Virus record (IMG/VR): IMGVR_UViG_3300031998_000008
Coordinates: 143,930 to 207,929 of that record
Length of the DNA stretch: 64,000 nt
Strand: one strand, 5' to 3'
From: a virus
Lineage: Duplodnaviria > Caudoviricetes
Shown piece after piece: positions 1-35,474 of this stretch. Positions within the stretch are counted from its first letter, which is position 1, and each line of letters starts with the position of its first letter. The notes beneath the pieces were generated by a model, which made no database searches, was not told the origin of the DNA, and saw nothing but the letters and a program-made list of their open reading frames with translations. Both the position numbers and the translations under genes were made by a program.

Positions 1-1606
1 GGATGAAATCAAGAAATATAGGAATTTCATTTTATTCATGGATAATATTGGTGCAATTCTTGCTGATAAAGGTAAGAATGACTATGAAATCTCTTCAATG
101 CTTTCACGTGGTCTTGAAACCGGTGAAATCCAAGTAATCGGTACTTCAGATTTTGCTTCTTATAGAAAGACATTCGATAAAGACCCAAGTTTGGCAAGAC
201 GTTTCCAAAAGATTATTGTTGAATCACCAAGTATTGATGAATCAATTAGAATTTTGGATGGCATTAAGGAATCATATGAGACCTACCATAAGGTTAGATA
301 TGAAGATGGTGTTATCGAAGCATGTGTAAAACTTGCGGATAAGTACATTTCAGAACGTAATTTGCCTGATTCAGCAATTGATATTCTTGATGAAATTGGT
401 TCATTGAATGGTACATCAAACGAGCCTACTGCTCTTAAAGAACTGAAGGCCCGTATTACGTTATTTGAGGATAAGATGGATGAAGCAAAGAGGGAAAAGG
501 ATTATGAAAGTGCTGATGCTATTTCAAAAGAAATTATTTTGTTGAAGAAACAATATAACGAGGAAAAGGATAGTTACGAAAAGGACCGTAACGAAAACCA
601 TATTCCTGTAACTGTTAATGACATTCTTAACCTTATTTCAGTTAAAACAGGTATTCCTGTAAGCAATCTTAATTCAGATGACAAGAAGAAATTGTCAGGA
701 ATGAATGATAGGCTTAAAGAAAGTGTTGTTGGTCAAGATGAGGCAATTGACACTGTTTGCAAGGCGTTGAAACGTAATAGAGTTGGCCTTAGCAATAATG
801 GTTGCATGTATAGTTACATGGCAATTGGTAAAACAGGTACAGGTAAAACCTTGTTGGCAAAGAAACTTGCTAAAGAGTTATTCGGTGATGAAAAGGCCCT
901 TGTTAGATTTGATATGTCTGAATATTCAGATAAGGTTTCAGTAAACAAACTTATTGGCTCAAATCCTGGTTATGTTGGATATGAAGAGGGTGGACAATTG
1001 ACTGAAACAATCAAAAATAAGAAACATTGCGTTCTTTTGCTTGATGAAATTGAAAAGGCTGACCCTGAGGTTTACAACATTTTCTTACAGGTTCTTGATG
1101 AAGGATTCTTAACAGATAACTCTGGCCAGCGTGTGGATTTCAAGAATGTAATCGTGGTATTTACATCAAACGTTGGTGCAAAGGCTGCAAGTGAATTTGG
1201 TAAAGGAATCGGATTTGCTAACGATGAGGAAGAAAATACAAAGAGAATCTTGTTGAAACAACTTAAAAATAGATTTCCACCTGAATTTCTTAACCGTATC
1301 AATGATGTTATATACTTTAACACATTGAATGACGATGACCTTAATTCAATTATTAAGATTGAAATTGGTAAACTTGAGAGCAGGTTAAATGGAATGGGAT
1401 ATTCCATGGAATATGACAACGATGTTGTTCAATACATTCTTAAAGAAATACAAGATGAAAAAGACTTCGGTGCAAGACCTATTATTAGGTGTATTCAAGA
1501 AAACATCGAAGACAAACTAACGGACAAACTTCTTGAGAATGATTACGAAAAAGGATATGTGTTCAAAATTTCTTGTCCTGAATTAAGTGCCGTAACAGTC
1601 GCTTAA
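1..1606 (+). CDS. clpC: ClpC-like AAA+ unfoldase (5' truncated by window)
   Basis: Frame open from window start; DPSLARRFQ, ERNLPDSAID, UVR-like coil (EKDYESAD), NBD2 Walker A GKTGTGKT, LLLDEIEKA, IGF ClpP-docking loop (GKGIGF), GARP. Confidence 0.9.
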   Translation, partial: DEIKKYRNFILFMDNIGAILADKGKNDYEISSMLSRGLETGEIQVIGTSDFASYRKTFDKDPSLARRFQKIIVESPSIDESIRILDGIKESYETYHKVRYEDGVIEACVKLADKYISERNLPDSAIDILDEIGSLNGTSNEPTALKELKARITLFEDKMDEAKREKDYESADAISKEIILLKKQYNEEKDSYEKDRNENHIPVTVNDILNLISVKTGIPVSNLNSDDKKKLSGMNDRLKESVVGQDEAIDTVCKALKRNRVGLSNNGCMYSYMAIGKTGTGKTLLAKKLAKELFGDEKALVRFDMSEYSDKVSVNKLIGSNPGYVGYEEGGQLTETIKNKKHCVLLLDEIEKADPEVYNIFLQVLDEGFLTDNSGQRVDFKNVIVVFTSNVGAKAASEFGKGIGFANDEEENTKRILLKQLKNRFPPEFLNRINDVIYFNTLNDDDLNSIIKIEIGKLESRLNGMGYSMEYDNDVVQYILKEIQDEKDFGARPIIRCIQENIEDKLTDKLLENDYEKGYVFKISCPELSAVTVA

Positions 1607-20366: not shown

Positions 20367-21032
20367 ATGAACGAAGATTTTAGAAAATTTGCAGTTAGCC
20401 AAGGTATTAACGGAAATACCTTTGATGCCTATAAAAAGGCTACAAACGGAATTATAAGTCCAACAATTCTTGAGGAAAGACATCTCAATGTTGCAACAAT
20501 GGACATCTTTTCAAGATTAATGTTCGATAGAATTATTGTTCTTGGTACTGAAATTAATGAAGATGTTGCTAACATTGTAACTTCTCAATTAATGTATTTG
20601 AATTCAGTTGATTCTGATTCAGATATTAAGTTGTTCATCAATTCTCCTGGCGGAAGTGTTATTGATGGCCTTGCAATCTATGACATTATGAACTGGGTTG
20701 AGCCTGATGTTGCAACATACACAATGGGTATGGCTGCTTCTATGGGTTCTATTTTGCTTTCTTCAGGTGCAAAAGGTAAAAGATATTCCTTACCGCACAG
20801 CAAAATTATGATTCACCAAGTAAGCGGTTACGCAGGTGGTCAATATTCAGACATTAAGATTTGGGCTGAAGAAATTAAGAAGCACCAAAGCGAACTTTAC
20901 AACATCCTTGCTGAAAACACAGGAAAATCATTTGAGCAAATTGAAAAGGATGCTGACCGTGACCATTGGTTCACAGCAAAAGAGGCTCTTGAATATGGCC
21001 TTATTGACGAAATAATTGAGAAAAAGAAATGA
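20367..21032 (+). CDS. clpP: ATP-dependent Clp protease proteolytic subunit
   Basis: DIFSRLMFDRII, INSPGGSV, GMAASMGS, IMIHQ, ADRDHWF. Confidence 0.95.
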   Translation: MNEDFRKFAVSQGINGNTFDAYKKATNGIISPTILEERHLNVATMDIFSRLMFDRIIVLGTEINEDVANIVTSQLMYLNSVDSDSDIKLFINSPGGSVIDGLAIYDIMNWVEPDVATYTMGMAASMGSILLSSGAKGKRYSLPHSKIMIHQVSGYAGGQYSDIKIWAEEIKKHQSELYNILAENTGKSFEQIEKDADRDHWFTAKEALEYGLIDEIIEKKK

Positions 21033-24242: not shown

Positions 24243-24385
24243 ATATTCAATTGGAAAGCCTGAAATAAAAAAGGAAGAAAAAGAAGCATATGACAAAATA
24301 GTATCAGACCTTTCACATTACGTTGATGGCGAGATATTAAAAGAAATAAAAGAATACTATAATAATTATTAAAACACAATTAACT

Positions 24386-24706: not shown

Positions 24707-24710
24707 TTTG

Positions 24711-24968
24711 ATGGATTCAGAGAAAGAAATAAAGGAAAATGTGAGCCTCACGTATTTATTCCATGAGGCTCCTGAAATCCTACCACACTTGGCTTGTCAT
24801 CCAGATTACGATGGGACAATTCCATGCTTAGTGCAAAGAGAAGGTTGCAAATTCTACGAAATATTGTACTATGATTGCCATTATAAATGTTGGAATGATG
24901 CTGAAGATGATGACTATGCATATGGCAATGATATAAAATTGAAATATATACAACTTATCGAAGATTAA
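24711..24968 (+). CDS. hypothetical protein
   Basis: ATG at 24711 just after the previous stop. Confidence 0.6.
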   Translation: MDSEKEIKENVSLTYLFHEAPEILPHLACHPDYDGTIPCLVQREGCKFYEILYYDCHYKCWNDAEDDDYAYGNDIKLKYIQLIED

Positions 24969-25038
24969 AATTTTTGAAAAATATTTGCTTTTTTGAAATA
25001 AAGTTTGTATATTAGAATGTGAAACAAAGGTTTCTGAT

Positions 25039-25139
25039 GCCCGCACGATGCGAAGGCGGCAGGTAAAACTGCTAACCCTACGGAGTACAACATGCCACGT
25101 TGAAGTGGAGGTTCTCAGGTTCGAATCCTGATACGGGCA
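25039..25139 (+). ncRNA. tRNA-like element (aberrant D and anticodon region)
   Basis: GCCCGCA/TACGGGC acceptor, TCAGG-TTCGAAT-CCTGA T arm. Confidence 0.55.
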
Positions 25140-25329
25140 CAAGGGAAATGCGGTCCATGAAGCAAGCCGTATTCGTGTGTTAATGAACGAGACAACTCAT
25201 AGGTGAACACGAATTAGTTTAATAGCGAAGAAAAAACGCCCTTTTTTAAAATTTTTTTATTGGTTTTTGAATTTTTTTAAAAAAAAGTATATTTATAAGT
25301 GTAAAATATCGAAAAATTAAAAAGGATTT

Positions 25330-25562
25330 ATGCAAATGATGAGTAAACATATTAATTTGACAGAAAATACATGCGGTAATCTCAAAGGCTACGGCAAGGG
25401 CTCATCATATGCATGCTCACCAAGAGAAGATTGGCACTTTAGGAGTAAAGGGAAACGAGCGATAGGAAGTTGAAAATAAAAAGCACATAGGTTTCTAACC
25501 ACAACATATTCCCGACCTCTGAAAAGTTTCCCAATCAACAAAAACTACTCAGAGGTTTTTTT
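25330..25562 (+). promoter_or_regulatory. Putative leader peptide (47 aa) and attenuator
   Basis: ORF 25330-25473, then ACCTCTGA..TCAGAGGT-T7; GGGAAAC in the ORF complementary to GTTTCCC in the loop. Confidence 0.4.
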
Positions 25563-25598
25563 ATTGCTCAAAATAATAAAAAAATAATCCGAAAATCA

Positions 25599-25844
25599 AT
25601 GAAAGACACATTAAAACAAATCGTAACAGGTAGCGCAAAACTTGACTGCATGAGAAGTGGCGGAATCGCAGAGTATATAATTACTTCAAGCACAGGCAAC
25701 AGATACCTATTGGAGATTGACTTGTCAGACAAATTTGATTGTGGAGAAACGGCAACTTTTAGTCCATACTACGAAAAGGCTATTATATTAATGAGGTGGA
25801 TTAGAAGGGCCATGGAAAAAGAAAATTTGATAGAATTATCATAA
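25599..25844 (+). CDS. hypothetical protein
   Basis: 81 aa ORF. Confidence 0.7.
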   Translation: MKDTLKQIVTGSAKLDCMRSGGIAEYIITSSTGNRYLLEIDLSDKFDCGETATFSPYYEKAIILMRWIRRAMEKENLIELS

Positions 25845-25887
25845 TTTTGAAAGTTTGGCACGATATTTGATAAGTTTCATCACAAAT

Positions 25888-25959
25888 GGGTTTGTAGCTC
25901 AAAGGCAGAGCAACGGTCTGTTAAACCGTAGGTTGAGATTTCGAAATTCTCCATTCCCT
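25888..25959 (+). tRNA. tRNA-Asn(GTT), mismatched acceptor
   Basis: ACGGT-CTGTTAA-ACCGT. Confidence 0.65.
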
Positions 25960-25984
25960 CAATGTTAAACTAAAAATTAAAAAA

Positions 25985-26218
25985 ATGGGAGTGAGAAACA
26001 GAACATATCGGTCACACTACAAAATAGGAATAAATGGTGAATACGAAGAAAAGAAATCGTATGAGACCGAAAAAGAGGCCCTGAAAGTGGCAAGATTCTT
26101 GAATACAAGAGAAAACATAATCCACAAGATGGTAGCCTACAAATGCGTAAAATGCGGCAAGTGGCACGTTGGAAGCAACAACACCGTGCTTGATGAAGAG
26201 GAAAGAAAAAAAATATAA
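25985..26218 (+). CDS. Small zinc-ribbon-like protein
   Basis: K.SY.T..EA...AYKC.KCGKWHVG. Confidence 0.7.
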   Translation: MGVRNRTYRSHYKIGINGEYEEKKSYETEKEALKVARFLNTRENIIHKMVAYKCVKCGKWHVGSNNTVLDEEERKKI

Positions 26219-26289
26219 AAAAAAGTTGCAGAAAAATTTGTGATATTCAAAAATAGTTTGTATATTCACAATGTTCTTTGAAAACAAAT

Positions 26290-26400
26290 GGGCTGTAAAT
26301 CCGAACAAAATAGCGGAGTGACCTGCTGGTCGAAGTATTATGCATAAGAAGACCATACGGTGGCAATGCGGCCACTGGGGTTCGAGTCCCCAACAGTCCA
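26290..26400 (+). ncRNA. tRNA-like element with G3:U70/A73 acceptor
   Basis: GGGCTGT/ACAGTCC-A, TGGGG-TTCGAGT-CCCCA; no normal anticodon arm. Confidence 0.55.
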
Positions 26401-26405
26401 CATAT

Positions 26406-26476
26406 AGGTGGTTGGTGTAACGGTAACATAGCGGTCTCCAAAACCGTTGTTGAGGGTTCGAATCCTTCACCACCTG
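26406..26476 (+). tRNA. tRNA-Trp(CCA)
   Basis: GCGGT-CTCCAAA-ACCGT; full cloverleaf. Confidence 0.92.
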
Positions 26477-26594
26477 CAAATACTGAAGAGTGCTCTTCGG
26501 TACAGAGTGGATAGTTTAAAAGAAGCACTTGGAAAAACATATGGAGTCCAATCCGTAAGATACAAGTTCGAGTCTTGTTCTGCTTGCAAATAAC

Positions 26595-26675
26595 GCTCGT
26601 TAGGTCGTATAGGGGATTAGTACACTATAAGCGGGACGCTAAGAAACACTGGTTCGAAACCAGTCCAAACGAGCA
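26595..26675 (+). ncRNA. tRNA-like element
   Basis: GCTCGTT/AACGAGC with T arm ACTGG-TTCGAAA-CCAGT; no anticodon arm. Confidence 0.45.
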
Positions 26676-26680
26676 AAAAT

Positions 26681-26755
26681 GCACCTGTGGTCGAGTGGTC
26701 AAAGGCAATGGTCTGCAAAACCATACAATCGTTGGTTCGAATCCAACCAGGTGCT
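26681..26755 (+). tRNA. tRNA-Cys(GCA)
   Basis: ATGGT-CTGCAAA-ACCAT. Confidence 0.92.
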
Positions 26756-26764
26756 CAAGAATAT

Positions 26765-26864
26765 GGAGGATGTGATGTAATGGTAGGCATAGCAGGGTAG
26801 ACCTGTCGGGTGTAATAAATTGGCCATGAATAAGCCCGTGAAAGTTCGAATCTTTCCGCCTCCG
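26765..26864 (+). ncRNA. tRNA-like element (Ser/Tyr-type body, 5-nt anticodon loop)
   Basis: GGAGG/CCTCC-G, GCAGG-GTAGA-CCTGT, T arm. Confidence 0.45.
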
Positions 26865-26887
26865 CAAAGAAGTTCTTTGAAAAACAT

Positions 26888-27023
26888 TGAAGCGTGGTGA
26901 AATGGTAGACACGGCGGTAGTAAACAAAACGCTTACAGTGTATGTAAGTTAACAGCAGTTGGTATTACGTTTCAGGTAGAACCGCTGCCAGTGGCGTTGG
27001 AGGTTCGAATCCTTCCGCTTCAA
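26888..27023 (+). tRNA. tRNA-Leu-type gene with ACAGCA-module insert in the anticodon arm (anticodon uncertain, CAG or TAG)
   Basis: Leu D arm GTGAAATGGTAGACAC, long variable arm, GCGGT/ACCGC stem around a ~60 nt insert with GCTTACA/TGTAAGT-TAACAGCAG. Confidence 0.7.
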
Positions 27024-27075
27024 CAAAAAAGTTTGGCACGATTTTTGATATAGTGCTTATGTTCTTTGAAATTAT

Positions 27076-27148
27076 CGGGATGTAGTTCAGTTGGTAGAAC
27101 GCATGGTTTGGGACCACGAGGTCGCAGGTTCGAGTCCTGTCATCCCGA
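27076..27148 (+). tRNA. tRNA-Pro(TGG)
   Basis: CATGG-TTTGGGA-CCACG. Confidence 0.9.
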
Positions 27149-27262
27149 CAGAAAGATGAAGGCAACTGCATGGACATAATCAATGCCACTATGTTGAGCA
27201 CTAGAAAATATGGCAGATAAAGGTCCTTGGACAAACTCAACTACGGTTAAACTTCATCAAAT

Positions 27263-27432
27263 GGTGCTCTGGCAGATATGGTATATGCACCGGACTGAAT
27301 ACAGAATAAACTGTAAATTAAACTTCGTGTTGGCGAAGAGGAAAACGCAAGACGCTAATCGTCTAACTCATCGGTTCAAATCCGATACACGGAGCAAATC
27401 CGGCTAAGGTGGTTCGAGTCCACTGGGCACCA
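27263..27432 (+). tRNA. tRNA-Phe(GAA) with 97-nt anticodon-loop insert containing a nested tRNA-like gene
   Basis: CCGGA-CTGAA[27300-27396]AA-TCCGG; acceptor GGTGCTC/GGGCACC-A. Confidence 0.75.
27324..27394 (+). ncRNA. Nested tRNA-like element (5-nt anticodon loop CTAAT)
   Basis: TTCGTGT/ACACGGA, GCG/CGC D stem, AGACG/CGTCT, ATCGG-TTCAAAT-CCGAT. Confidence 0.7.
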
Positions 27433-27483
27433 CAGAAAATTTGATAATAAAATAGAAATTAAAATAAAAAAATAGGTAATACG

Positions 27484-27519
27484 ATGACACGATTTAAGAA
27501 ACACATAAAACGACTGTAA
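27484..27519 (+). promoter_or_regulatory. Mini-ORF MTRFKKHIKRL followed by a 10-bp hairpin
   Basis: A-rich leader then ATG; hairpin AATGATGGTA/TACCATCATT at 27522-27554. Confidence 0.4.
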
Positions 27520-27566
27520 GTAATGATGGTACACCTTGTAGTTTTACCATCATTCGGGAAGACTAT

Positions 27567-27639
27567 GGGGATGTAGCAGACACGGTTGTTGCGTGTGACT
27601 GAAAATCACAAGAAGTTGGGTCAGCACCAACCATCCCCA
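27567..27639 (+). tRNA. tRNA-Phe(GAA), atypical T loop
   Basis: TGTGA-CTGAAAA-TCACA; T loop GTCAGCA. Confidence 0.75.
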
Positions 27640-27645
27640 CAATAG

Positions 27646-27719
27646 GGGCTCATAGCATAATTGGTAGTTGCACCTGACTTTTAATCAGGGGGTTCTGGGT
27701 TCGAGTCCCAGTGGGCCCA
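27646..27719 (+). tRNA. tRNA-Lys(TTT)
   Basis: CCTGA-CTTTTAA-TCAGG. Confidence 0.92.
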
Positions 27720-27728
27720 CAAGCAAAT

Positions 27729-27804
27729 GCGCTTGTAACTCAGTGGTTTTCAGAGTACTTGACTTTTAATCAAGGAGTCGTGGGTTCGAGTCCCACCAGG
27801 CGCA
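27729..27804 (+). tRNA. tRNA-Lys(TTT)
   Basis: CTTGA-CTTTTAA-TCAAG. Confidence 0.92.
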
Positions 27805-27810
27805 CTAAAT

Positions 27811-27882
27811 GCCCCAATGGTGTAATGGATAGCACTAAAGTCCACGGAACTTTCAGTGAGGGTTCGAATCCTTCTTGGGGTA
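27811..27882 (+). tRNA. tRNA-Arg(ACG), C33
   Basis: AAAGT-CCACGGA-ACTTT. Confidence 0.85.
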
Positions 27883-27894
27883 CTTTTGACAAAC

Positions 27895-27965
27895 GTCCCT
27901 GTAGGTCAACGGTAGACTAGGTGACTCTTAATCATCGGATTTGGGTTCGAATCCCAGCGGGGGCA
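27895..27965 (+). tRNA. tRNA-Lys(CTT)
   Basis: GGTGA-CTCTTAA-TCATC. Confidence 0.9.
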
Positions 27966-28015
27966 CAAAACTTGGCACGGTTTTTGATAATGTGCAAACG
28001 TTCTTTGAAAAACAT

Positions 28016-28087
28016 GGCTCCATAGTTCAAGGGATAGAACGAGTGCCTTCTAAGCACCAAATCTAGGTTCGAGTCCTAGTGGGGCTA
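28016..28087 (+). tRNA. tRNA-Arg(TCT)
   Basis: AGTGC-CTTCTAA-GCACC. Confidence 0.9.
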
Positions 28088-28095
28088 CAAAACAT

Positions 28096-28167
28096 GCTCC
28101 TATAGTTCAAGGGAGAGAATAGAAGTTTCCTAAACTTTTGATTTAGGTTCGAGTCCTAATAGGAGTA
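28096..28167 (+). tRNA. tRNA-Arg(CCT)
   Basis: GAAGT-TTCCTAA-ACTTT. Confidence 0.9.
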
Positions 28168-28188
28168 CAAACTTAAATTAAATAGAAT

Positions 28189-28359
28189 ATGGGACTTACA
28201 TATGGCGAAGAGCCTGAACCTTGGATGAATAGCGATGCCCATAACAGGCATTGTTCACGTAAAAAAATTAAACGTGAGAGACATAAAAAACTCAGAAGAA
28301 TACCTCTTGACAAAGATGTCAGGTCAATGTTAAAAAGGTACTCAGGCTGGGAATGGTAA
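28189..28359 (+). CDS. Small basic hypothetical protein (56 aa)
   Basis: MGLTYGEEPEPW...RYSGWEW read by eye. Confidence 0.5.
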   Translation: MGLTYGEEPEPWMNSDAHNRHCSRKKIKRERHKKLRRIPLDKDVRSMLKRYSGWEW

Positions 28360-28363
28360 ATAT

Positions 28364-28435
28364 GCGGCGTTAGTACAACGGTTAGTATATCAGCTTGCCA
28401 TGCTGAAGATGTCGGTTCGATTCCGATACGCCGCT
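28364..28435 (+). tRNA. tRNA-Gly(GCC)
   Basis: TCAGC-TTGCCAT-GCTGA. Confidence 0.92.
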
Positions 28436-28557
28436 CTAAGGTAACTTTAGATTACCTGAAGGTGATATGTGGCATCCTCAAGTACAAGGGACACACCATA
28501 CTTTAGATGGTTATCGCTTTCCCTAGGGCGATTTTAAAATAGCACAGTAGGGGTGTA

Positions 28558-28628
28558 GGCGATGTAGTCTAACGGTAGAACGGGGCTCTCATAAGGCCCA
28601 TACGGAAGTTCAACTCTTCCCATCGCCA
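28558..28628 (+). tRNA. tRNA-Met/Ile2(CAT)
   Basis: GGGCT-CTCATAA-GGCCC. Confidence 0.85.
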
Positions 28629-28951
28629 CAAAAAAAAATAAAAAAAAAAGATTTGCTTTTTACAAATTCAATTTGTATATTTGCAATATCAAAAGTTCTT
28701 TGAAAGAATATATCAAGCCGCCCAGTCGGTAGTCGCAGATTACGGTTTGCGATAAAAGTGGTACTTGGAAGCTAATCCGCTCAGTCGGTAAAAGGTAAGG
28801 TGAGAGAGGTCATCTTTAAAACGTCAATTCGTAAGCCTGAAAAGTGATACTTAGCGTTTTCTCAAAAGGACAGAGTTCTTTGACATATTGTGAAATCTGA
28901 ATAAATACAACTTCTAAAGGTTGTCTGTAGTGATACACGCAACCTTCTTAC

Positions 28952-29038
28952 GGAGGCGTGGCTGAGTGGTTTAAGGCGGCGGTCTTGAAAACCGTTGGCC
29001 TCGTAAGGGGCCCGCAGGTTCGAATCCTGCCGCCTCCG
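28952..29038 (+). tRNA. tRNA-Ser(TGA)
   Basis: GCGGT-CTTGAAA-ACCGT, long variable arm. Confidence 0.93.
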
Positions 29039-29105
29039 CAAAAAAAATCTATAACGAGAATACGACATCCTGTAGTAGAGCACTTAGTATTTAAGTTATA
29101 GTAAT

Positions 29106-29233
29106 GCTGGAATCGTCTAATGGATTAGGACACGTAGCAAACAAAATGATTTCAGTCGGAAATGAAATTTAACAGCAGAATTTAGCAATGAAATTCCAAT
29201 TCCGAAATGGGGGTTCGAATCCCTCTTCCAGCT
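29106..29233 (+). tRNA. tRNA-Gly(TCC) with 55-nt ACAGCA-module insert (29135-29189)
   Basis: Removing the insert gives CGGAA-ATTCCAA-TTCCG; acceptor GCTGGAA/TTCCAGC-T. Confidence 0.8.
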
Positions 29234-29235
29234 CT

Positions 29236-29361
29236 TGCAAGTTGGTGTAGTGGCAGCACACGTAGCGACTAATTAGATTTCAGACATGGAATTAGACAGC
29301 AATATTTAAAATGCGATGAAACCATAATTCCGTGACAGAGGTTCGATTCCTCTACTTGCAA
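29236..29361 (+). tRNA. tRNA-Met/Ile2(CAT) with 55-nt ACAGCA-module insert (29263-29317)
   Basis: Removing the insert gives CGGAA-ACCATAA-TTCCG. Confidence 0.78.
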
Positions 29362-29373
29362 CTATTTAAGATT

Positions 29374-29495
29374 TGGGATGTGGTGTAACGGTAGCACACG
29401 TAGCACTTTATGATTTCAGACACGGAATTTTACAGCAATTATTTTAGCGATGAATTTGGGTTTCCGTGGTTTTGGTTCGACTCCAGACGTCCCGA
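29374..29495 (+). tRNA. tRNA-Pro(TGG) with 51-nt ACAGCA-module insert (29401-29451)
   Basis: Removing the insert gives CGGAA-TTTGGGT-TTCCG. Confidence 0.8.
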
Positions 29496-29517
29496 CATGT
29501 TTTTCAGGTTAAGGTAA

Positions 29518-30029
29518 TGAAATCCCAAGTGGGGCCCAATATATAACAGTCCTTGCTATATGGCGTGAGGATAAAGTTGGGAAAATATAGGTAAAAAATG
29601 CATTCTTACGCCCTAATGGTTGATATATTGTGGTATCAATGGTGTGTTTTTATGTGTGTGACTACGCAAATCACACAGATTTCAATCTAATGAAATACCA
29701 AGTGGGTCCTGATATAGCATATTCACAAAAAATGGTTTGTGAAGAAGTCAGGAAAATAGTGGTGAAGATGATTATTCAGTTAATCCTTAACGTTGGCATA
29801 TCGTGGAGCCAACTGTTCGTCTTTGTGTGCGTGACTACGCAAGTCGCACATATTTCGTCATAATGAAACCCCAAGTGGGACCCAATATACAATAGCCTTT
29901 GCTATATGGCGTAAAGGTAAAGTTGGGGTAATATAGGTAAAAATGCTTGGTTGCGCCCTAATGGTTGATATATCGTGGTATCAACAGTGTGTTTTTATGT
30001 GTGTGACTCCGCAAATCACACAGGTTTCA
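29518..30029 (+). ncRNA. Three tandem copies of a ~167-nt structured RNA (29518-29684, 29691-29857, 29864-30029)
   Basis: 173-nt period; closing stems TGAAATC/GATTTCA, TGAAATA/TATTTCG, TGAAACC/GGTTTCA; conserved CCAAGTGGG and GTGACT(A/C)CGCAA. Confidence 0.8.
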
Positions 30030-30116
30030 TTTTTTTTTGGTACACGTTAAAATGTTTTTTTTTATTCGCCTTTACTAATTTTTAAATTTCATTATATTTA
30101 TATAAAAATATTTATA

Positions 30117-30686
30117 ATGAAAAAGAATTTTAGAACAAAAGAAGAATATATTGAGGCTGCAAAGATGGCTCATAGTGTTGCTGAAATGTGCAGATTACTT
30201 GGTAGAAATCCATGTGGCGCTGGATATTATATTATGAAAAAGAAAATCAAAGAATATGATATAGATATAAGTCATTTTCTTGGGCAAGGATGGAATAAGG
30301 GTTTAAAGATGAACCCTAATGAGGGAAAAATTAAAAAATTAGAAGAAATATTAGTAGAAAATTCCACATATGCTAATTGTAATTGTTTAAAAAAAAGGTT
30401 ATTAAAAGAAGGTGTTAAAGAATATAGGTGTGAGTGTTGTGGGTTGACTGAGTGGAACGGTAAAGAAATTCCTTTAGAAATACATCACATAAATGGTGTT
30501 AGAAATGATAACAGGATTGAAAATCTTCAATTATTATGCCCAAATTGCCATGCTCAAACAGATAATTATTGTTCTAAAAATATGAAGAATGGCGGAGTGG
30601 TGGAATTGGTAGACACGACTGTCCCAAAAGCAGTTGCCGAGAGGCGTGTGGGTCCGACTCCCACCTCCGCTACAGAACTTAAATAA
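30117..30686 (+). CDS. HNH homing endonuclease
   Basis: CECCG..EWNG..LEIHHING..NDNRIENLQLLCPNCH. Confidence 0.9.
   Translation: MKKNFRTKEEYIEAAKMAHSVAEMCRLLGRNPCGAGYYIMKKKIKEYDIDISHFLGQGWNKGLKMNPNEGKIKKLEEILVENSTYANCNCLKKRLLKEGVKEYRCECCGLTEWNGKEIPLEIHHINGVRNDNRIENLQLLCPNCHAQTDNYCSKNMKNGGVVELVDTTVPKAVAERRVGPTPTSATELK
30591..30672 (+). tRNA. tRNA-Leu(CAA), C33, T loop TCCGA; lies inside the HNH ORF 3' end
   Basis: ACTGT-CCCAAAA-GCAGT; Leu D and variable arms. Confidence 0.85.
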
Positions 30687-30704
30687 TAATTAAAAATTAA
30701 CAAA

Positions 30705-31340
30705 ATGAAGAAAGTATTTATTTTATTGATGGCAATTTCTTTGATGTTTTCATTCAATTCTTGCGATTGGTTTAACAAGAACAAGGATAATGAGAAAAAA
30801 GAAATTATCGTGGAAAACGTAGTTAAAGCAGACAGAGACTACATGACAGAAAATTATGGTAATACCTACGTATGGTATGAAACACAAATTTCTTTGAATG
30901 ACTATCTTGATGAAGAATGCGATGGCTCATTCTCAGAGATTGTAGATGTGTTCCAAGTTATCACTACAACTGACAGTGTAACATTTGATACCAAAGTAAT
31001 TAAGATGTACCATGTTGCTGATTCTTCATACATTGAAGAAATTGAAGGTTTCTGGGTTGAAGACATGAATATGAACGATGAAATCATTTCAGTCACTTAC
31101 AAACAAGCATTCCAACTTATTAATGAAGTAAACTTCCCAAAACCACATTCAAAGAATTGTGTTTTGAGAAAAGAAGTTGGCCCAATTGAAGCTAATCCTC
31201 AGTATATCTTTGGCAACATTGAATCACAATTGTATGTTGATGCATTGACAGGTGATGTAACTGATGAAAGCCCAAGTTTCTGTGACGAAGTTATTGAAAA
31301 CGACAGCATCGAAGATGTAAACACTCAATTTGGTGAGTAG
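30705..31340 (+). CDS. Putative lipoprotein
   Basis: MKK + hydrophobic stretch + FNSC lipobox; acidic mature part. Confidence 0.75.
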   Translation: MKKVFILLMAISLMFSFNSCDWFNKNKDNEKKEIIVENVVKADRDYMTENYGNTYVWYETQISLNDYLDEECDGSFSEIVDVFQVITTTDSVTFDTKVIKMYHVADSSYIEEIEGFWVEDMNMNDEIISVTYKQAFQLINEVNFPKPHSKNCVLRKEVGPIEANPQYIFGNIESQLYVDALTGDVTDESPSFCDEVIENDSIEDVNTQFGE

Positions 31341-31372
31341 CCGTAATTAAATAAAAAAAGATATAAAAATTA

Positions 31373-31439
31373 GAAAACCTAACAGCAACTTTTAGTAATA
31401 ATCAGGACTTTCATTCCCGACAATAAACTAATGGTTTTC
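31373..31439 (+). ncRNA. ACAGCA-stem RNA displaying a Glu(TTC) anticodon arm
   Basis: GAAAACC-TAACAGCAA ... CAGGA-CTTTCAT-TCCCG ... GGTTTTC. Confidence 0.7.
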
Positions 31440-31458
31440 GTTTTTTAGAACCCATATA

Positions 31459-31529
31459 AGTAATCCTACAGCAACATTTCAACAAAACCTTTGATTGCAA
31501 TTCAAAACCATGTTAACAAACGGATTACT
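31459..31529 (+). ncRNA. ACAGCA-stem RNA displaying a Cys(GCA) anticodon arm
   Basis: AGTAATCC-TACAGCAA ... TTTGA-TTGCAAT-TCAAA ... GGATTACT. Confidence 0.75.
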
Positions 31530-31535
31530 GTAAAT

Positions 31536-31607
31536 GCCTCCTTAGTATAACGGTTATTATATCGGCTTTGTAACCCGAAGATGGCAGTCCGATTCTGCCA
31601 GGGGGCT
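31536..31607 (+). tRNA. tRNA-Thr(TGT), T loop TCCGA
   Basis: TCGGC-TTTGTAA-CCCGA. Confidence 0.82.
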
Positions 31608-31729
31608 CAAAACATTCGAGGGATTGAGGCTTGGTTTCCTATTCTGACCTTTTGACGAATTGTGTTGGAATACGAATAAGGAGCAAGAGGCTTGCATGCA
31701 CCTGGCTTGCTGTGTAGAGTGTTTTTAAT

Positions 31730-31813
31730 GGGAGCGTAACCGGTAATTGGTAGCCGCACGGACTGTAAATCCGTTCCCTTTTGGGACTGGTGGTTCGAGT
31801 CCACCCGCTCCCA
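31730..31813 (+). tRNA. tRNA-Tyr(GTA)
   Basis: ACGGA-CTGTAAA-TCCGT. Confidence 0.92.
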
Positions 31814-31905
31814 CAACAAGCACAAGTCTTTAGGCCCCCACACACATGGCAGCATAAGACTATATAAGTGGGAATACAAGCAAGAATTCTAAAGTGTTTG
31901 TTAAT

Positions 31906-31976
31906 GCGTTGTTAGTACAACGGCAGTATATTGGCTTCCCAAGCCGAAGATGTCAGTTCGATTCTGATACAGCGCT
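31906..31976 (+). tRNA. tRNA-Gly(CCC)
   Basis: TTGGC-TTCCCAA-GCCGA. Confidence 0.9.
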
Positions 31977-31984
31977 CATGTTTT

Positions 31985-32066
31985 CGGCTTGTGGTGGAAC
32001 TGGTAGACACGCATGTCTTAGGAACATGTGCCGAAAGGCGTGTGGGTTCGACTCCCACCTTGCCGA
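31985..32066 (+). tRNA. tRNA-Leu(TAG)
   Basis: CATGT-CTTAGGA-ACATG; two T-T mismatches in acceptor. Confidence 0.85.
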
Positions 32067-32192
32067 CTGAAAATATATCAACGAAGCTTTGACTAATGAA
32101 GCCATGGATTTTACTGTGAGAAGTCCTATTGTGGACCGTTGATTTTTTAGATTATACTTTTTAGTTGATTATACTTTTTAGTTGAAAATATA

Positions 32193-32283
32193 AGGAAACT
32201 TGCAGCAAATTTAATTAGGTTCAATAAATTTAACTTCCAATTAGATTTTAGATGGTTCGAGTCCATTACAAACAAGGTTTCCT
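32193..32283 (+). ncRNA. GCAGCA-stem RNA with Gly(TCC) anticodon arm and T arm
   Basis: AGGAAACTT-GCAGCAA ... TTTAA-CTTCCAA-TTAGA ... GATGG-TTCGAGT-CCATT ... AGGTTTCCT. Confidence 0.75.
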
Positions 32284-32289
32284 GAGTTT

Positions 32290-32363
32290 GGGAGAGTAGC
32301 GTAGCTGGTTAGCGCAACGGACTGTTAATCCGTGGGTCGTGGGTTCGATTCCCACCTCTCCCG
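32290..32363 (+). tRNA. tRNA-Asn(GTT)
   Basis: ACGGA-CTGTTAA-TCCGT. Confidence 0.92.
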
Positions 32364-32368
32364 CACAA

Positions 32369-32511
32369 AGTAAGCTTGCAGCAATAATTCAGTTTATTTT
32401 CGCAGATACCGAAGAGATGTCGGTTCGATTCCGGCCCCCCATACAAATTTAACTTTCTTATCATATGGGGGTAGTTTAATGGTAGAATATTACAAACAAC
32501 AAAGGCTTACT
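32369..32511 (+). ncRNA. Circularly permuted tRNA mimic (GAT loop) on a GCAGCA stem
   Basis: Order: stem, anticodon arm, T arm, CCCCCAT, linker, ATGGGGG, D arm, stem (AGTAAGCT/GGCTTACT). Confidence 0.8.
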
Positions 32512-32527
32512 GTCAATACAAAGCAAA

Positions 32528-32620
32528 AGAAATCTTACAGCAAATATCAACTTGATTAGTTCGATTCTAATATTAGCCGCCATAAACAGGCTGATTGCAA
32601 AGGTGCAGTTAATGATTTCT
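32528..32620 (+). ncRNA. Permuted tRNA mimic (T arm, closed acceptor, D-like arm; no anticodon) on an ACAGCA stem
   Basis: AGAAATC/GATTTCT; ATTAG-TTCGATT-CTAAT; ATTAGCC-GCCA..GGCTGAT; TGCA/TGCA. Confidence 0.75.
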
Positions 32621-32635
32621 GAATGCTTTTTTTAT

Positions 32636-32709
32636 AGGGGTATGGTTGAATTGGTTACAAGTACCGGCCTGTCACGCCGGTGGTGCGGGTTCGAGTCCCG
32701 TTATCCCTG
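32636..32709 (+). tRNA. tRNA-Asp(GTC)
   Basis: CCGGC-CTGTCAC-GCCGG. Confidence 0.92.
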
Positions 32710-32719
32710 CAATAGATAA

Positions 32720-32849
32720 AGGAATTCAACAGCAACTTTTAATTTCGTTTGACTGTAAATCAAAAGGTTATTGGTTCGAATCCAGTTGTTGCATTAGAGA
32801 AATCGAAGGCGACATAGCTCAATTGGTAGAGTAAGAAAAAGTGATTCCT
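32720..32849 (+). ncRNA. Circularly permuted tRNA-Tyr(GTA) mimic on an ACAGCA stem
   Basis: AGGAATT/GATTCCT; TTTGA-CTGTAAA-TCAAA; T arm; TGTTGC..GCGACA; TAGCTCAATTGGTAGAGT. Confidence 0.82.
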
Positions 32850-32866
32850 GTGCATCTATTTTTTAT

Positions 32867-32940
32867 GGGCCTGTGGTTGAATGGTTTACAATGCCGCCCT
32901 GTCACGGCGTGTGGTGCGGGTTCGAATCCCGTCAGGCCCG
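32867..32940 (+). tRNA. tRNA-Asp(GTC)
   Basis: CGCC-CTGTCAC-GGCG. Confidence 0.9.
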
Positions 32941-32951
32941 CATAGATTGAA

Positions 32952-33106
32952 AGAAATTTAACAGCAAGAGACTTTATGGTAAACACATTTCTCTGCAAAA
33001 GAAAGATTGTTGGTTCGAGTCCAACTGTAGCATTGAAGACGGAGCCCTCATTTAGCGAGGTGCGAGTTTTTGGCTGCATAGTGAAATTGGAAAAAGAATG
33101 ATTTCT
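32952..33106 (+). ncRNA. Circularly permuted tRNA-Cys(GCA) mimic on an ACAGCA stem (break in the D loop)
   Basis: AGAAATT/GATTTCT; TGGTAAACAC; TTTCT-CTGCAAA-AGAAA; T arm; TGTAGC..GCTGCA-TAGTG. Confidence 0.8.
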
Positions 33107-33234
33107 GTAAATCTATAACATAGGAAACAAAGGACACACGTACCTTAAACAAGTACGAAAAGTTAGTGCAAGCCGAATAAAGTCGCCAAGCGTCTCAGGT
33201 CGGTAGCATGATAGTGAAATGTAAATTTCTTAAT

Positions 33235-33307
33235 GGGGAGTTCATTTAGCGGTTTAGGATGCAGGTTCGACAGACCTGTCACTATGGTTCGATTCCATAA
33301 CACCCCA
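33235..33307 (+). tRNA. tRNA-Val(GAC), C33
   Basis: CAGGT-TCGACAG-ACCTG. Confidence 0.7.
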
Positions 33308-33310
33308 CAA

Positions 33311-33661
33311 TCGGATGTTGTTGATATTCAAAGAAAAGTCCGTAAGACGAGGGTTCGACTCCCTCCGGGTCCACCATATTGGGTGCGCCATGTTGAGTAC
33401 CAACCATACTAGTTATACGGTTCTTATGATTCATGGTACAATACCAAGTAATTTGAAAAACTTGGTTCGGGTTTAAAATTGGGGTTCAACTCCCTGGCAT
33501 CCAACAACTTTCAAACATGGGCCCGCTTGGATTTGATTGCGAATGAATACAATGGAAGGAGATATTCGAGAAGCCAATAAATGGCAATGAAAATTATGCA
33601 TATGCAGTTGCAGCCTAAGCTAGGTTAGCAAATGCAGGTTGGCAGCGAACCAAATCGCTGC
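33311..33661 (+). ncRNA. ssrA: Two-piece (circularly permuted) tmRNA
   Basis: Acceptor piece ends T arm-CGGGTCC-ACCA at 33376; coding piece starts GGGCCCG..GGATTTGA at 33519 (G3:U70); tag GNENYAYAVAA-stop at 33583-33618. Confidence 0.88.
33380..33504 (+). ncRNA. tRNA-like element in the tmRNA intervening segment
   Basis: TGGGTGC/GCATCCA-A, TGGGG-TTCAACT-CCCTG, ACCAAGT/ACTTGGT hairpin. Confidence 0.55.
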
Positions 33662-33665
33662 AAAT

Positions 33666-33738
33666 GGCGGGTTCGTATAATAGGTTAGTACGCCACCCTC
33701 TCAAGGTGGAAATAGAGGTTCGAACCCACTACTCGCTA
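33666..33738 (+). tRNA. tRNA-Glu(CTC)
   Basis: CCACC-CTCTCAA-GGTGG. Confidence 0.82.
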
Positions 33739-33748
33739 CAAAATACAT

Positions 33749-33820
33749 CGTGCCATCGAATAATGGTTAGTTCGCTGCCCTTTCACGGCAGTAATACGGG
33801 TTCGAGTCCCGTTGGCACGA
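33749..33820 (+). tRNA. tRNA-Glu(TTC)
   Basis: CTGCC-CTTTCAC-GGCAG. Confidence 0.92.
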
Positions 33821-33894
33821 CTCTCGCCGAGTTAGTTTCTAATCCGGAGCGCTTAACGTACACACGTTAGTAAGTAGGAAACAAGGCGAGTTTT

Positions 33895-33969
33895 CGGCTA
33901 GTGGTGTAATTGGTTAGCACGTCACCCTGATAAGGTGAAAGTTTGGTGGTTCGAGTCCACCCTAGCCGA
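33895..33969 (+). tRNA. tRNA-Ile(GAT)
   Basis: TCACC-CTGATAA-GGTGA. Confidence 0.92.
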
Positions 33970-34167
33970 CAAAATATGCAAAAATTTGTGAAATAATTTA
34001 TTTTTTTGTATATTTATAAAACAAGAAAGTAGTATTCCTGTCAAGGGCGAAACAATTGATGGGTTAGAGCCATACCGTTAGAAACACGGTCATAATGTTA
34101 GGGTACAAGTCGGGTAAAACTGACACCAGTCGGAATGACAAGTTAAATTATGGTTCACTTTCTAAAT

Positions 34168-34242
34168 GGGGCGTTAGCTCAGTCTGGCTAGAGCGGTAGC
34201 TTTGCAAGCTTCAGGTCGTGGGTTCGAATCCCACACGCTCCA
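34168..34242 (+). tRNA. tRNA-Ala(TGC)
   Basis: GGGGCGT/ACGCTCC (G3:U70), loop TTTGCAA. Confidence 0.9.
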
Positions 34243-34608
34243 CAAAACATATTCAGGTATAGAAGACGCAAATTCTAAGAGACTGCTCTGTGTTTTGGAC
34301 GATATATGTGTACCAAACCAATGTTCAAGTTGCGTATTGAACTGAGGGCATGTATAATCGAAAAAAAGTGTCTATGGTGTAAGTGGTGAGCACACCCAAT
34401 GGAGGGAGGTACGGTTCGAGTCCGTGGATTACTTCAATTTTTTTCTTATTATTTAAAAGGATGAAGTTGGTAGCGCCACAACGTAATGTAACAAGTCCCT
34501 GAAATGGTCATTTCAAACTGTGTTCCTTATCGTAGTTAAGGGAAAGTCTTTTACGGTTTCTATAATGCGAAAGCCAAAATGTATCAAAGGAAGCAAACCG
34601 TTTTATTT

Positions 34609-34735
34609 GGAGGTATAGTTTAGTGGTAGAATGACGTAAAATGAAAATAGCATTTTGGTCATTTAAAAATGTTAACAGCATATGAGTTCAATGCCTTTCC
34701 CGCCGTTGATGTAGGTTCGATTCCTGCTGCCTCCG
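34609..34735 (+). tRNA. tRNA (TTC, Glu) with 56-nt ACAGCA-module insert (34637-34692)
   Basis: Removing the insert gives ACGGC-CTTTCCC-GCCGT. Confidence 0.75.
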
Positions 34736-34889
34736 CTATGAGATACCAATAGGTTTACTTAATCATATGTCAGAAGTACAATGACGTTAGAGTATGGGAT
34801 TGCCGGAAGCTAACGGTGTGATACATAACTTCGCACAATTGGTAACAATTCATGTTAGTTGCAAATGACATGATGCTCATTTTTTTTAT

Positions 34890-35021
34890 TGGCCAGTAGC
34901 TCAGTTGGCAGAGCAACGGAATGAAAAGAAAACGCATTTTGGCCTAAAGATGTTAACAGCAATGAAAAATTTTCGACTGTTAATCCGTGGGCCGCAGGTT
35001 CGAGTCCTGCCTGACCAGCCA
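34890..35021 (+). tRNA. tRNA-Asn(GTT) with 56-nt ACAGCA-module insert (34920-34975)
   Basis: Removing the insert gives ACGGA-CTGTTAA-TCCGT; encoded GCCA end. Confidence 0.82.
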
Positions 35022-35131
35022 ATATGTCTTGTGTTGGTGCGTAACCATCGGGCACTAAATGTTGAAACAAACAGGATTAAGTTCCTCGAAAGCCATTAAT
35101 CAGTTCAACTCTGATGGGACATATTTTTTAT

Positions 35132-35207
35132 GCATGTATGAAGCAGATTGGATGTGCTACCAGCGTGATAAGGCTGGGCTATGTTGGTTCGAATCCAACT
35201 GCATGCG
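35132..35207 (+). tRNA. Atypical tRNA-Ile(GAT)-like, 8-nt anticodon loop
   Basis: CCAGC-GTGATAAG-GCTGG; GCATGTA/TGCATGC. Confidence 0.55.
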
Positions 35208-35248
35208 CAAATTACCTGAACACATAGGGTGATTTATCTGTACAGATT

Positions 35249-35402
35249 GGGTGTGTAGACTGAATGGGAAAATTGGTATCAAAAGTACATTCGGATATGA
35301 CTGAAATGCAGATAGGTCATATTGACGGGATGCAACTTGAGAAGATTTGAAGATGCGCCCGGTAAGCTCCGGGAGATACGGGTTCGAATCCCGTCACACT
35401 TA
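35249..35402 (+). ncRNA. tRNA-like element with a large D-arm insertion
   Basis: GGGTGTG/CACACTT, CCCGG-TAAGCT-CCGGG, ACGGG-TTCGAAT-CCCGT. Confidence 0.5.
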
Positions 35403-35407
35403 CAATA

Positions 35408-35474
35408 GGAAAACATACAGCAACTTTAATTCAGTTACAATCTTTTAAATTGTGGGACTAAAATTTCGTTTTCC
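35408..35474 (+). ncRNA. ACAGCA-stem RNA displaying a Lys(TTT) anticodon arm
   Basis: GGAAAAC-ATACAGCAA ... ACAAT-CTTTTAA-ATTGT ... GTTTTCC. Confidence 0.78.

Follow-up and report, generated by a model that had tools for sequence, protein, structure and literature searches.

A predicted two-piece tmRNA of ruminant-gut huge phages is punctuated by tRNA genes and hosts structured RNAs in its spacer

Introduction

Permuted two-piece transfer-messenger RNAs (tmRNAs) are a textbook case of RNA gene permutation and are usually credited to three bacterial lineages and to organelles; they have been described from alphaproteobacteria, some cyanobacteria and betaproteobacteria, and jakobid mitochondria. 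A gene of this kind sits within an array of roughly 37 tRNA genes in a giant T4-type phage of the cattle rumen, in the last 64 kb of the 207,929-bp IMG/VR virus record IMGVR_UViG_3300031998_000008 (CheckV completeness 56%). This whole stretch of 64,000 nt, which was analyzed here, is referred to as the window. The locus raises the question of whether such a gene is a working tmRNA, where its permutation came from, and what role is played by a tRNA-shaped RNA that lies between its two halves. An earlier note, made from the sequence alone, had proposed that the permutation was independent and that the embedded fold supplied processing signals. Comparison of the locus with its relatives lends good support to a new family, i.e., reduced, tRNA-punctuated, Bacteroidota-like two-piece tmRNAs in T4-type huge phages of the ruminant gut, with a spacer that hosts conserved structured RNAs.

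Transcripts of permuted tmRNA genes are cut by tRNA-processing enzymes into two base-paired pieces, and a merged Rfam model has been established for them (PMC11915505). Phage tmRNAs are also known (PMC4131195, PMC7162821). A two-piece tmRNA was reported for phage Melnitz, and 53 of 133 unique phage tmRNA sequences were flagged as two-piece (PMC9004378); these published cases were missing from the list of known permuted tmRNAs given in the earlier note. A canonical tRNA-Ala in the spacer of a permuted tmRNA has been noted once, in GCA-2688965 sp002688965.2, and was called a unique feature (PMC11915505). The tmRNA database counts, without comment, 48 permuted instances in Bacteroidota genomes (PMC11915505), and relatives of the rumen-phage family described here may be among them.

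Results

The acceptor half of the tmRNA gene lies upstream of the coding half

ARAGORN called a permuted tmRNA at 33308-33665 on the + strand with the tag GNENYAYAVAA, and the Rfam model tmRNA_permuted (RF04321) matched 33314-33618 with 63.4 bits, relative to a gathering score of 47 (E = 6.6e-10). In the window, the T arm, the 3' strand of the acceptor stem and CCA come first, followed by the spacer and then by the 5' strand of the acceptor stem and the tag. The elements from which a permuted, presumably two-piece tmRNA had been predicted are all in place, i.e., the T arm and CGGGTCC-ACCA end (33376) upstream of GGGCCCG (33519), the tag with its stop codon, the pseudoknot, and a 142-nt spacer holding a tRNA-shaped element. 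The two pieces, their parts and the adjoining tRNA genes are as follows.

33235..33307, + strand: tRNA-Val(GAC), abutting the acceptor piece directly (ARAGORN; Rfam tRNA 41 bits)
33308..33376, + strand: tmRNA acceptor piece, 69 nt (RF04321 alignment, covariation counts, coordinate check)
33313-16 with 33326-29, + strand: 5' hairpin of the acceptor piece
33338-45, + strand: 3' strand of helix P2a
33349-33365, + strand: T arm
33366-33372, + strand: 3' strand of helix P1, CGGGTCC
33373, + strand: discriminator A
33374-33376, + strand: encoded CCA, which closes the acceptor piece
33377..33518, + strand: intervening segment (spacer), 142 nt, predicted to be left out of the mature tmRNA (alignments of relatives; per-sequence split)
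33519..33665, + strand: tmRNA coding piece, 147 nt, ending in a 4-nt tail (ARAGORN, Rfam, pair counts)
33519-33525, + strand: 5' strand of P1, GGGCCCG, then CTTGGATTTGA; the D-loop analogue is in the coding piece
33537-33544, + strand: 5' strand of P2a
33553-33568, + strand: coding-piece hairpin of 4-5 bp, between P2a and the tag
33583, + strand: resume codon GGC
33583..33618, + strand: tag reading frame GNENYAYAVAA, then UAA (ARAGORN)
33603-33636, + strand: helix 5, with the tag stop codon UAA at the helix top
33637..33661, + strand: H-type pseudoknot (direct sequence reading)
33666..33739, + strand: tRNA-Glu(CUC), beginning 4 nt past the pseudoknot (ARAGORN; Rfam 53.2 bits)

Pairing of 33366-72 with 33519-25 gives a P1 helix of 7 bp including G3:U70, and the two pieces together amount to ~216 nt. 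In the pseudoknot, the strands of S1, GGUU (33637-40) and AACC (33648-51), are interleaved with those of S2, GCAGCG (33642-47) and CGCUGC (33656-61), which is a true H-type topology. A T arm and CCA end downstream of 33519 and able to pair with it was looked for in the 64-kb window. The only occurrence of CGGG[TC]CC is the one at 33366, and therefore no downstream strand is able to pair with 33519. No promoter-like or terminator-like site was found on the + strand between tRNA-Val and tRNA-Glu. The phage origin suggested earlier is borne out by a T4-type major capsid protein encoded in the window (Gp23, 213.7 bits) and by the 208-kb virus record itself.

Helices and tag are maintained in relatives from ruminant-gut phages

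Nine further distinct relatives were found in ruminant-gut phage contigs. The gene for a 686-aa protein lies 3.7 kb downstream of the tmRNA, and its homologues (53-91% identical) led to contigs from other samples; a pseudoknot 20-mer used as a query located more relatives in IMG/VR, JGI metagenomes and GTDB genomes. Three of four matches of this 20-mer in genome contigs (Thermoplasmatota, Desulfocapsaceae and one Bacteroidales metagenome-assembled genome, MAG) had no tRNA or tmRNA nearby and were discarded as chance matches. One relative is on a contig binned with a Bacteroidales MAG. The INPHARED phages gave no match by blastn or megablast with the locus and 13 kb of neighboring genes, IMG/VR gave none to the exact T-arm 27-mer or to a gapped tRNA-like-domain pattern, and a related-locus search with the 686-aa neighbor protein as the lone query found nothing. 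The sequencing runs that hold the locus are cattle, goat and sheep gut metagenomes. With RF04321 the relatives scored 48.2-74.7 bits. tRNA-Val(GAC) stands directly upstream of the tmRNA in every relative contig with enough upstream sequence, and tRNA-Glu directly follows it in most relatives, though not in contig L018.

Single-sequence folding was without signal (z-scores: spacer -1.5, acceptor piece -0.06, coding piece -1.0), and RNAalifold applied to the re-ordered pieces failed to recover P2. Because folding programs gave no usable signal, helices were set by hand and then tested by pair counts in 10 distinct sequences (alignment A3). Overall, 96.3% of cells were paired, compared to 26-44% when the partners were slid by 1-3 columns, and double-sided changes were seen at 10 pairs. 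Shuffles reached the observed values in 0-1 of 500 cases on four of the five measures, and in 9 of 500 for further standard pair types. P1, which is formed across the spacer, was 100% paired with two covarying pairs (C-G/A-U and G-C/U-A/A-U exchanges); its 5' strand occurs as GGGCCCG, GGGCCAU or GGGCCUG, each with the matching 3' strand. G3:U70 (columns 66 and 319) was retained in 10/10 sequences, and an A follows the acceptor strand in all of them. P2a is a helix of 8 bp with double changes at four pairs and 96.3% of cells paired, and the T arm has two covarying pairs. Because P1 and P2a covary and G3:U70 is invariant, the gene order is real and under selection.

The tag was maintained as well. 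Relatives carry GNENYAYAVAA, GNENYAYARVAA or GNENYAYAYAAA, with the endings RVAA or YAAA among the variants, and in all relatives with an ARAGORN tag the frame is intact, ends in AA and stops at UAA. The 3' tail of the coding piece is 4 nt long and variable among relatives. As judged from these comparisons, the permuted tmRNA is a gene under selection and not a relic. We consider it likely that the circularly permuted tmRNA is functional and that it belongs to a family found in T4-type huge phages of the ruminant gut, the hosts of which are probably Bacteroidales.

Several observations weigh against a functional tmRNA. The RNA is minimal and has a single pseudoknot; no convincing PK1 was found in it, only the 4-5-bp hairpin between P2a and the tag. 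All 10 pairs of the pseudoknot are invariant across the 10 relatives and the resume-codon hairpin never varies either, so that these elements are conserved but their helices are not proven. Helices P2b and P2c of the Rfam model are unsupported by covariation in the rumen-phage family, and the 5' region of the acceptor piece seems rather to fold on itself as a hairpin (87.5% of cells paired). CCA is encoded only in the window phage and its closest relative, the other relatives ending in AC, so that 3' maturation must differ within the family. A search for SmpB (PF01668), which the earlier note had suggested, found none in the phage record (56% complete) or in the 302-kb record of a relative (82% complete), an absence that rests on incomplete genomes. 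A CCA-adding enzyme (PF01743) was not found in the phage record. Finally, four ruminant metatranscriptome runs contain parts of the locus as assembled contigs at a depth of 2.5-7; contigs from RNA libraries cannot show RNA ends, and one of them spans 33358-33690 uncut, as a precursor or carried-over DNA would.

Two further features of the RNA libraries were inspected. In run X18, 33374 (the first C of CCA) is linked in one contig to 33518 (the base before the coding piece), the intervening 143 nt being absent and unknown letters standing at the join; a strain with a different spacer is its probable source. At 33346-33378, very deep pieces of 33 nt have 1-3 mismatches and probably derive from the tmRNA or tRNA of other organisms. 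The RNA-library contigs are evidence neither for nor against processing.

A model for maturation and use of the two pieces

Because no promoter or terminator separates the pieces and tRNA genes abut both ends, co-transcription is the simplest model, i.e., the tmRNA is probably transcribed as part of the tRNA array. Host tRNA-processing enzymes would then cut out, in order, tRNA-Val, the 69-nt acceptor piece, the spacer, the 147-nt coding piece and tRNA-Glu. In this scheme, the 5' end of the acceptor piece would arise when tRNA-Val is processed at its 3' end, RNase P cleavage at G33519 would give the 5' end of the coding piece, and RNase P cleavage at the 5' end of tRNA-Glu would set the 3' end of that piece. 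The mature pieces would be held together by P1 (7 bp, with G3:U70) and P2a (8 bp), so as to form an alanine-accepting tRNA-like domain and a short mRNA-like part made up of the hairpin, the tag reading frame, helix 5 and the pseudoknot. Charging with alanine would be expected from G3:U70. Since no SmpB was found in the phage, host SmpB is assumed; with it, the RNA would enter stalled ribosomes and add (A)GNENYAYAVAA.

Proteins tagged in this way could go to Clp proteases, possibly including those of the phage. Two genes in the window are relevant to this step.

1..1606, + strand: 3' part of a gene for a two-AAA+ Clp ATPase (Pfam AAA_lid_9, AAA_2, ClpB_D2-small)
20367..21032, + strand: phage ClpP protease gene (Pfam CLP_protease, 245.6 bits)

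The whole Clp ATPase gene has ~861 codons with two Walker A motifs and starts upstream of the window (~142953 of the record). Its second AAA+ module, the module in which ClpA and ClpC have their ClpP-docking loops, contains a GIGF motif. It is therefore possible that the phage-made ClpP and a ClpA/C-like ATPase serve as the protease for tmRNA-tagged proteins.

The spacer is a variable slot for structured RNAs

In the window phage and its relatives the same flanking tmRNA encloses spacers of 22, 27, 97, 145-151 or 241 nt, as counted from the discriminator. Two structured elements, A and B, are distributed among them as follows.

33380..33504, + strand: element A of the window, a tRNA-shaped RNA of 125 nt (covariation, 4 distinct sequences)
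Spacer of 22 nt: without a fold (L020)
Spacer of 27 nt: without a fold (L017, L018)
Spacer of 97 nt: structured element B, unrelated to A (L014)
Spacer of 145-151 nt: element A (window, L012, L026)
Spacer of 241 nt: B, then A, in tandem (L013, L019, L024)

Element A includes an acceptor-like stem of 7 bp (with G4:U69), a long D-like arm whose closing helix is GCCAUG/CAUGGU, an anticodon-like arm of 7 bp whose loop contains a conserved UUUGAAA, and a 13-nt linker. The linker leads to a T arm (UGGGG / UUCAACU / CCCUG) with a 5-bp stem and a 7-nt loop of the UUCNANU type, which is continuous with the acceptor stem. Among the four distinct sequences 99% of cells were paired, and six pairs showed double changes, at least one in each helix; the compensatory changes include U-A to C-G at pair 1:72 and G-C to U-A in the T stem. 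The tRNA-like shape that had been proposed for 33380-33504 is thus backed by covariation, and we take element A to be a genuine four-helix tRNA-shaped RNA on these grounds.

It is not recognized as a tRNA. Element A had no Rfam tRNA match at E<=1 and no ARAGORN call at default thresholds, whether introns were allowed or not; its D-like arm encloses ~43 nt, and the anticodon-like loop of the window copy has 10 nt, not the canonical 7. A covariance model of element A (R1) matched only inside tmRNA spacers, with no copy elsewhere in the phage record and none in the 302-kb record of a short-spacer relative. In the window phage, element A begins 3 nt past the encoded CCA; L026 has element A without an encoded CCA. 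Because the shortest spacers among the relatives carry no such fold, the fold of element A is an optional insert and probably not a general requirement for tmRNA maturation. In the window phage it may offer an RNase P site 3 nt past the encoded CCA. More likely, it is a small RNA in its own right that is released as a by-product and would be dispensable for maturation of the tmRNA.

Element B (L014:17116-17211, - strand; also the first half of the L013 spacer) is a second structured RNA of these spacers. Its helices show compensatory changes between L014 and L013 (CAGGUU/AACCUG vs UAAGUU/AACUUA in the closing helix, and GUAGG/CCUAC vs GAGA/UCUC in an inner hairpin), and its flanks are similar to the tmRNA's own pseudoknot (GGUUGGC...GCGAACC).

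Features shared with Bacteroidales tmRNAs and with other phage tmRNAs

The RNA fell below the thresholds of the clade models, with 14.4 bits for alpha_tmRNA (gathering score 50) and 32.2 bits for beta_tmRNA (84), and cyano_tmRNA (gathering score 70) had no match at the locus. The family was compared with 28 sampled one-piece tmRNAs of Bacteroidales. Their tags are GENNYALAA, GDNNYALAA, GNDYNYALAA and similar, in keeping with the Bacteroidota-like tag that had been noted for the window. They have the 5' motif UGG(A/U)UUUGACAGC and UUUGGAC before the T arm, and their CCA is usually unencoded. Over the first 30 nt, L017 and L020 have 26-27 matches to the best Bacteroidales tmRNA, compared to 18-19/31 to RF04321; only the figures of these two relatives entered this comparison, and RF04321 was represented by its consensus line only. 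By hand reading, the opening of P2a (C-G, A-U, G.U, bulged U, C-G) is common to the short-spacer relatives and the Bacteroidales tmRNAs.

A pattern scan found the UUUGACAG motif together with the permuted tRNA-like-domain arrangement, with 15-45-nt spacers, in at least 39 other IMG/VR contigs (L080-L118). ARAGORN called a permuted tmRNA in 33 of the 39, and several share the layout in which the tag starts ~165-200 nt into the gene call. One is a true beta_tmRNA (116.8 bits), while seven from outside the rumen-phage family that were tested with Rfam pass only RF04321, beta being the best clade model at 35-49 bits. Together, the 39 contigs may stand for a large group of tmRNAs that is carried by phages and lies outside the three bacterial clades. 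UUUGACAG had been considered as Bacteroidales-specific proof of origin and was dropped, the motif being present also in a beta-type phage tmRNA and in many other phage tmRNAs. Many tags among the 39 contigs are of the GEQVEMAMAA, GTQVEMAMAA or GEQVEYAMAA type.

A different permuted tmRNA was observed on a Bacteroidales MAG contig (L038:1410-1896, - strand; RF04321 51.1 bits; tag GNKIESKIAA). Its ~200-nt spacer is closed by a long hairpin, it has a terminator of its own, and it lies outside any tRNA array; its T arm is identical to that of the window.

Comparison with known tmRNAs

Bacteroidales one-piece tmRNAs (RF00023) resemble the phage RNA in the tag style G(E/D/N)NNYA..AA, the resume context AACUGGC and the usually unencoded CCA, and in the short-spacer relatives the likeness extends to the UGG(A/U)UUUGACAGC 5' motif and to UUUGGAC before the T arm. 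They differ from it in their standard gene order and their length of ~370-400 nt, whereas the phage RNA is permuted and has ~216 nt, and the acceptor-stem pair 4:69 of the phage RNA is inverted relative to theirs. The usual tmRNA has four pseudoknots, for which the length of the Bacteroidales tmRNA leaves room. With the permuted tmRNAs of RF04321 the phage RNA shares the gene order, the joining of pieces by P1 and P2, G3:U70 and a score of 63.4 bits. It differs from them in falling below all three clade thresholds, in its unsupported P2b and P2c, in its one pseudoknot, and in being phage-borne and from a gut habitat.

The nearest precedents lie in phage Melnitz (a Methylophilales phage) and the pelagimyophages, which are aquatic T4-like myophages (PMC9004378). 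There, too, a circularly permuted ssrA is found in a T4-type phage and passes the general permuted model, a short acceptor piece is followed by a spacer and a coding piece, and phage SmpB is, by implication, not needed. The ssrA of Melnitz is reported to be of alphaproteobacterial type, and it is a solitary gene located downstream of an early promoter and next to a glutamine riboswitch (PMC9004378). In contrast, the rumen-phage tmRNA fails alpha_tmRNA, has a Bacteroidota-like tag, lies in a tRNA array with tRNAs on both sides, and carries structured RNA in its spacer. GCA-2688965 sp002688965.2 likewise has a tRNA-type fold nested in a permuted tmRNA spacer (PMC11915505). Its insert is a high-scoring canonical tRNA, whereas element A is undetected as a tRNA, has an expanded D-like arm and a 10-nt loop, and is present or absent among close relatives.

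Discussion

How do other explanations fare against a working two-piece tmRNA? That the locus makes no working rescue RNA, and is instead a relic in decay or a decoy that binds up host SmpB and so blocks trans-translation in the host, is in our judgment very unlikely. Such a reading would account for a much reduced RNA with one pseudoknot and no clear PK1 and for the lack of a phage smpB in the records searched, and it has a precedent in the RNA of mycobacteriophage DS6A, which has the tRNA-like domain only and was proposed to be a decoy (PMC4131195). It does not explain why all ARAGORN-tagged relatives have kept the reading frame of the tag with its resume-codon context, the UAA stop in helix 5 and a hydrophobic ...AA terminus although neighboring proteins have diverged to ~50% identity; compensatory changes preserve P1, P2a and the T arm, and a decoy would have no need of a coding part. 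Rejoining of the halves into a one-piece tmRNA by an RNA cutting-and-ligation system appears extremely unlikely. What brings it to mind is the surrounding array, where two tRNAs hold 58- and 67-nt inserts in the anticodon region and a [TA]ACAGCA-type motif recurs 14 times. Neither end of the tmRNA gene has such a motif module, the sole weak match being GGCAGCGA at 33641 inside the pseudoknot; the gene ends abut tRNA-Val and tRNA-Glu directly, with a variable 3' tail of 4 nt, and all characterized permuted tmRNAs remain two-piece (PMC11915505).

With the two-piece tmRNA as the preferred reading, there remain the role of element A and the origin of the permutation, on both of which the earlier note had taken a position. 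For RNase P and RNase Z, an acceptor stem with a T arm is the smallest shape that serves as a substrate. Element A has its acceptor stem stacked on a T arm, its fold is conserved with covariation, and it lies 3 nt past the CCA in the window phage, which with its closest relative forms the only CCA-encoding pair, a hint of local dependence. On this basis the fold could be a required processing signal, through which RNase P and RNase Z release the CCA end of the acceptor piece as well as the coding piece's 5' end. We regard this as unlikely, and the claim that the embedded fold supplies the processing signals is not supported for the family: the same tmRNA core occurs with foldless spacers of 22 nt (L020) and 27 nt (L017, L018) and, in L014, with only the unrelated element B, L026 keeps element A but encodes no CCA, and RNase P has a standard site of its own at the start of the coding piece. 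Moreover, bacterial and other phage permuted tmRNAs mature with short unstructured spacers (PMC11915505 and the pattern-scan contigs). As for origin, a one-piece Bacteroidota tmRNA may have been captured and rearranged in this phage lineage, independently of the alpha-, beta- and cyanobacterial permutations and of the other phage tmRNAs, a proposal that we hold only tentatively. The failure of all three clade models (alpha 14.4, beta 32.2, cyano no match) and the likeness to Bacteroidales tmRNAs in the tag, the 5' ends of L017 and L020, the opening of P2a and the mostly unencoded CCA speak for it, as does the family member on a Bacteroidales-MAG contig. Yet UUUGACAG is not exclusive to Bacteroidales, as it occurs in the 39 other contigs including the true beta_tmRNA, and the seven outside contigs tested behave like the rumen-phage family in passing only RF04321, several having a similar layout. 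The likeness to the host in tag and tRNA-like domain could also reflect adaptation to host SmpB, alanyl-tRNA synthetase and proteases, and the comparison with RF04321 used a consensus line without a tree. Because at least 39 other viral contigs carry the same arrangement and motif, a shared phage-borne ancestor is equally possible; the independent permutation is unproven.

A more far-reaching proposal would combine these elements. It would see a fourth permutation, carried by phages and derived from a one-piece tmRNA of Bacteroidota, a spacer that has become a slot for stand-alone structured RNA genes, and in element A a functional tRNA mimic, e.g., a decoy for host anticodon nucleases or for a tRNA-binding factor, which is released stoichiometrically with the tmRNA. 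The tmRNA, the phage ClpP and the ClpA/C-like unfoldase would then make up a self-contained tag-and-degrade module during infection. As a whole, we consider this proposal rather unlikely.

Nothing is overturned by the new family, as two-piece tmRNAs of phages had been reported once already, and so had a tRNA in the spacer of a tmRNA. Its interest is that selection maintains permuted tmRNA genes in phages of the gut, the hosts of which are probably Bacteroidales, that a two-piece tmRNA can be reduced to ~216 nt with a single pseudoknot, and that its gene can be punctuated entirely by neighboring tRNA genes. It also shows that a discarded tmRNA spacer can hold conserved non-coding RNAs that come and go among close relatives. 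The family offers a compact natural system for the minimal needs of a tmRNA and for CCA maturation with and without an encoded CCA, and it raises the question of whether a phage's own Clp protease works together with a tagging RNA that the phage also encodes.

Other features of the tRNA array

Two tRNA genes of the array, at 34609-34735 and 34890-35018, reached Rfam scores of 43.7 and 49.3 bits only when inserts of 67 and 58 nt in the anticodon region were skipped. Both were missed by ARAGORN, and both inserts contain AUGUUAACAGCA. Without its insert, 34890-35018 has a restored Asn(GUU) arm like that of the intact gene at 32290. Similar long tRNA matches occur in the relatives L012 (5465-5593, 5737-5863), L013 (16484-16604, 16611-16738) and L014 (15324-15445, 15451-15574).

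The motif [TA]ACAGCA or TGCAGCAA has 14 occurrences in the tRNA array (23044-35416), none of which flanks the tmRNA. By one hand reading, 32369-32520 fits a permuted tRNA gene, with two ends able to pair beside such a [TA]ACAGCA/TGCAGCAA motif. The array also includes an HNH endonuclease gene (30117-30686) and, at 23147-23218, a tRNA with a CUA anticodon, labeled Pyl by ARAGORN, that is a possible amber suppressor; this tRNA suggests possible readthrough or recoding of TAG in part of the phage. At one and the same array position, L012:5160-5231 and L013:16371-16441, ARAGORN reported a tRNA whose 'anticodon' has two bases (ta), pointing to an unusual anticodon loop.

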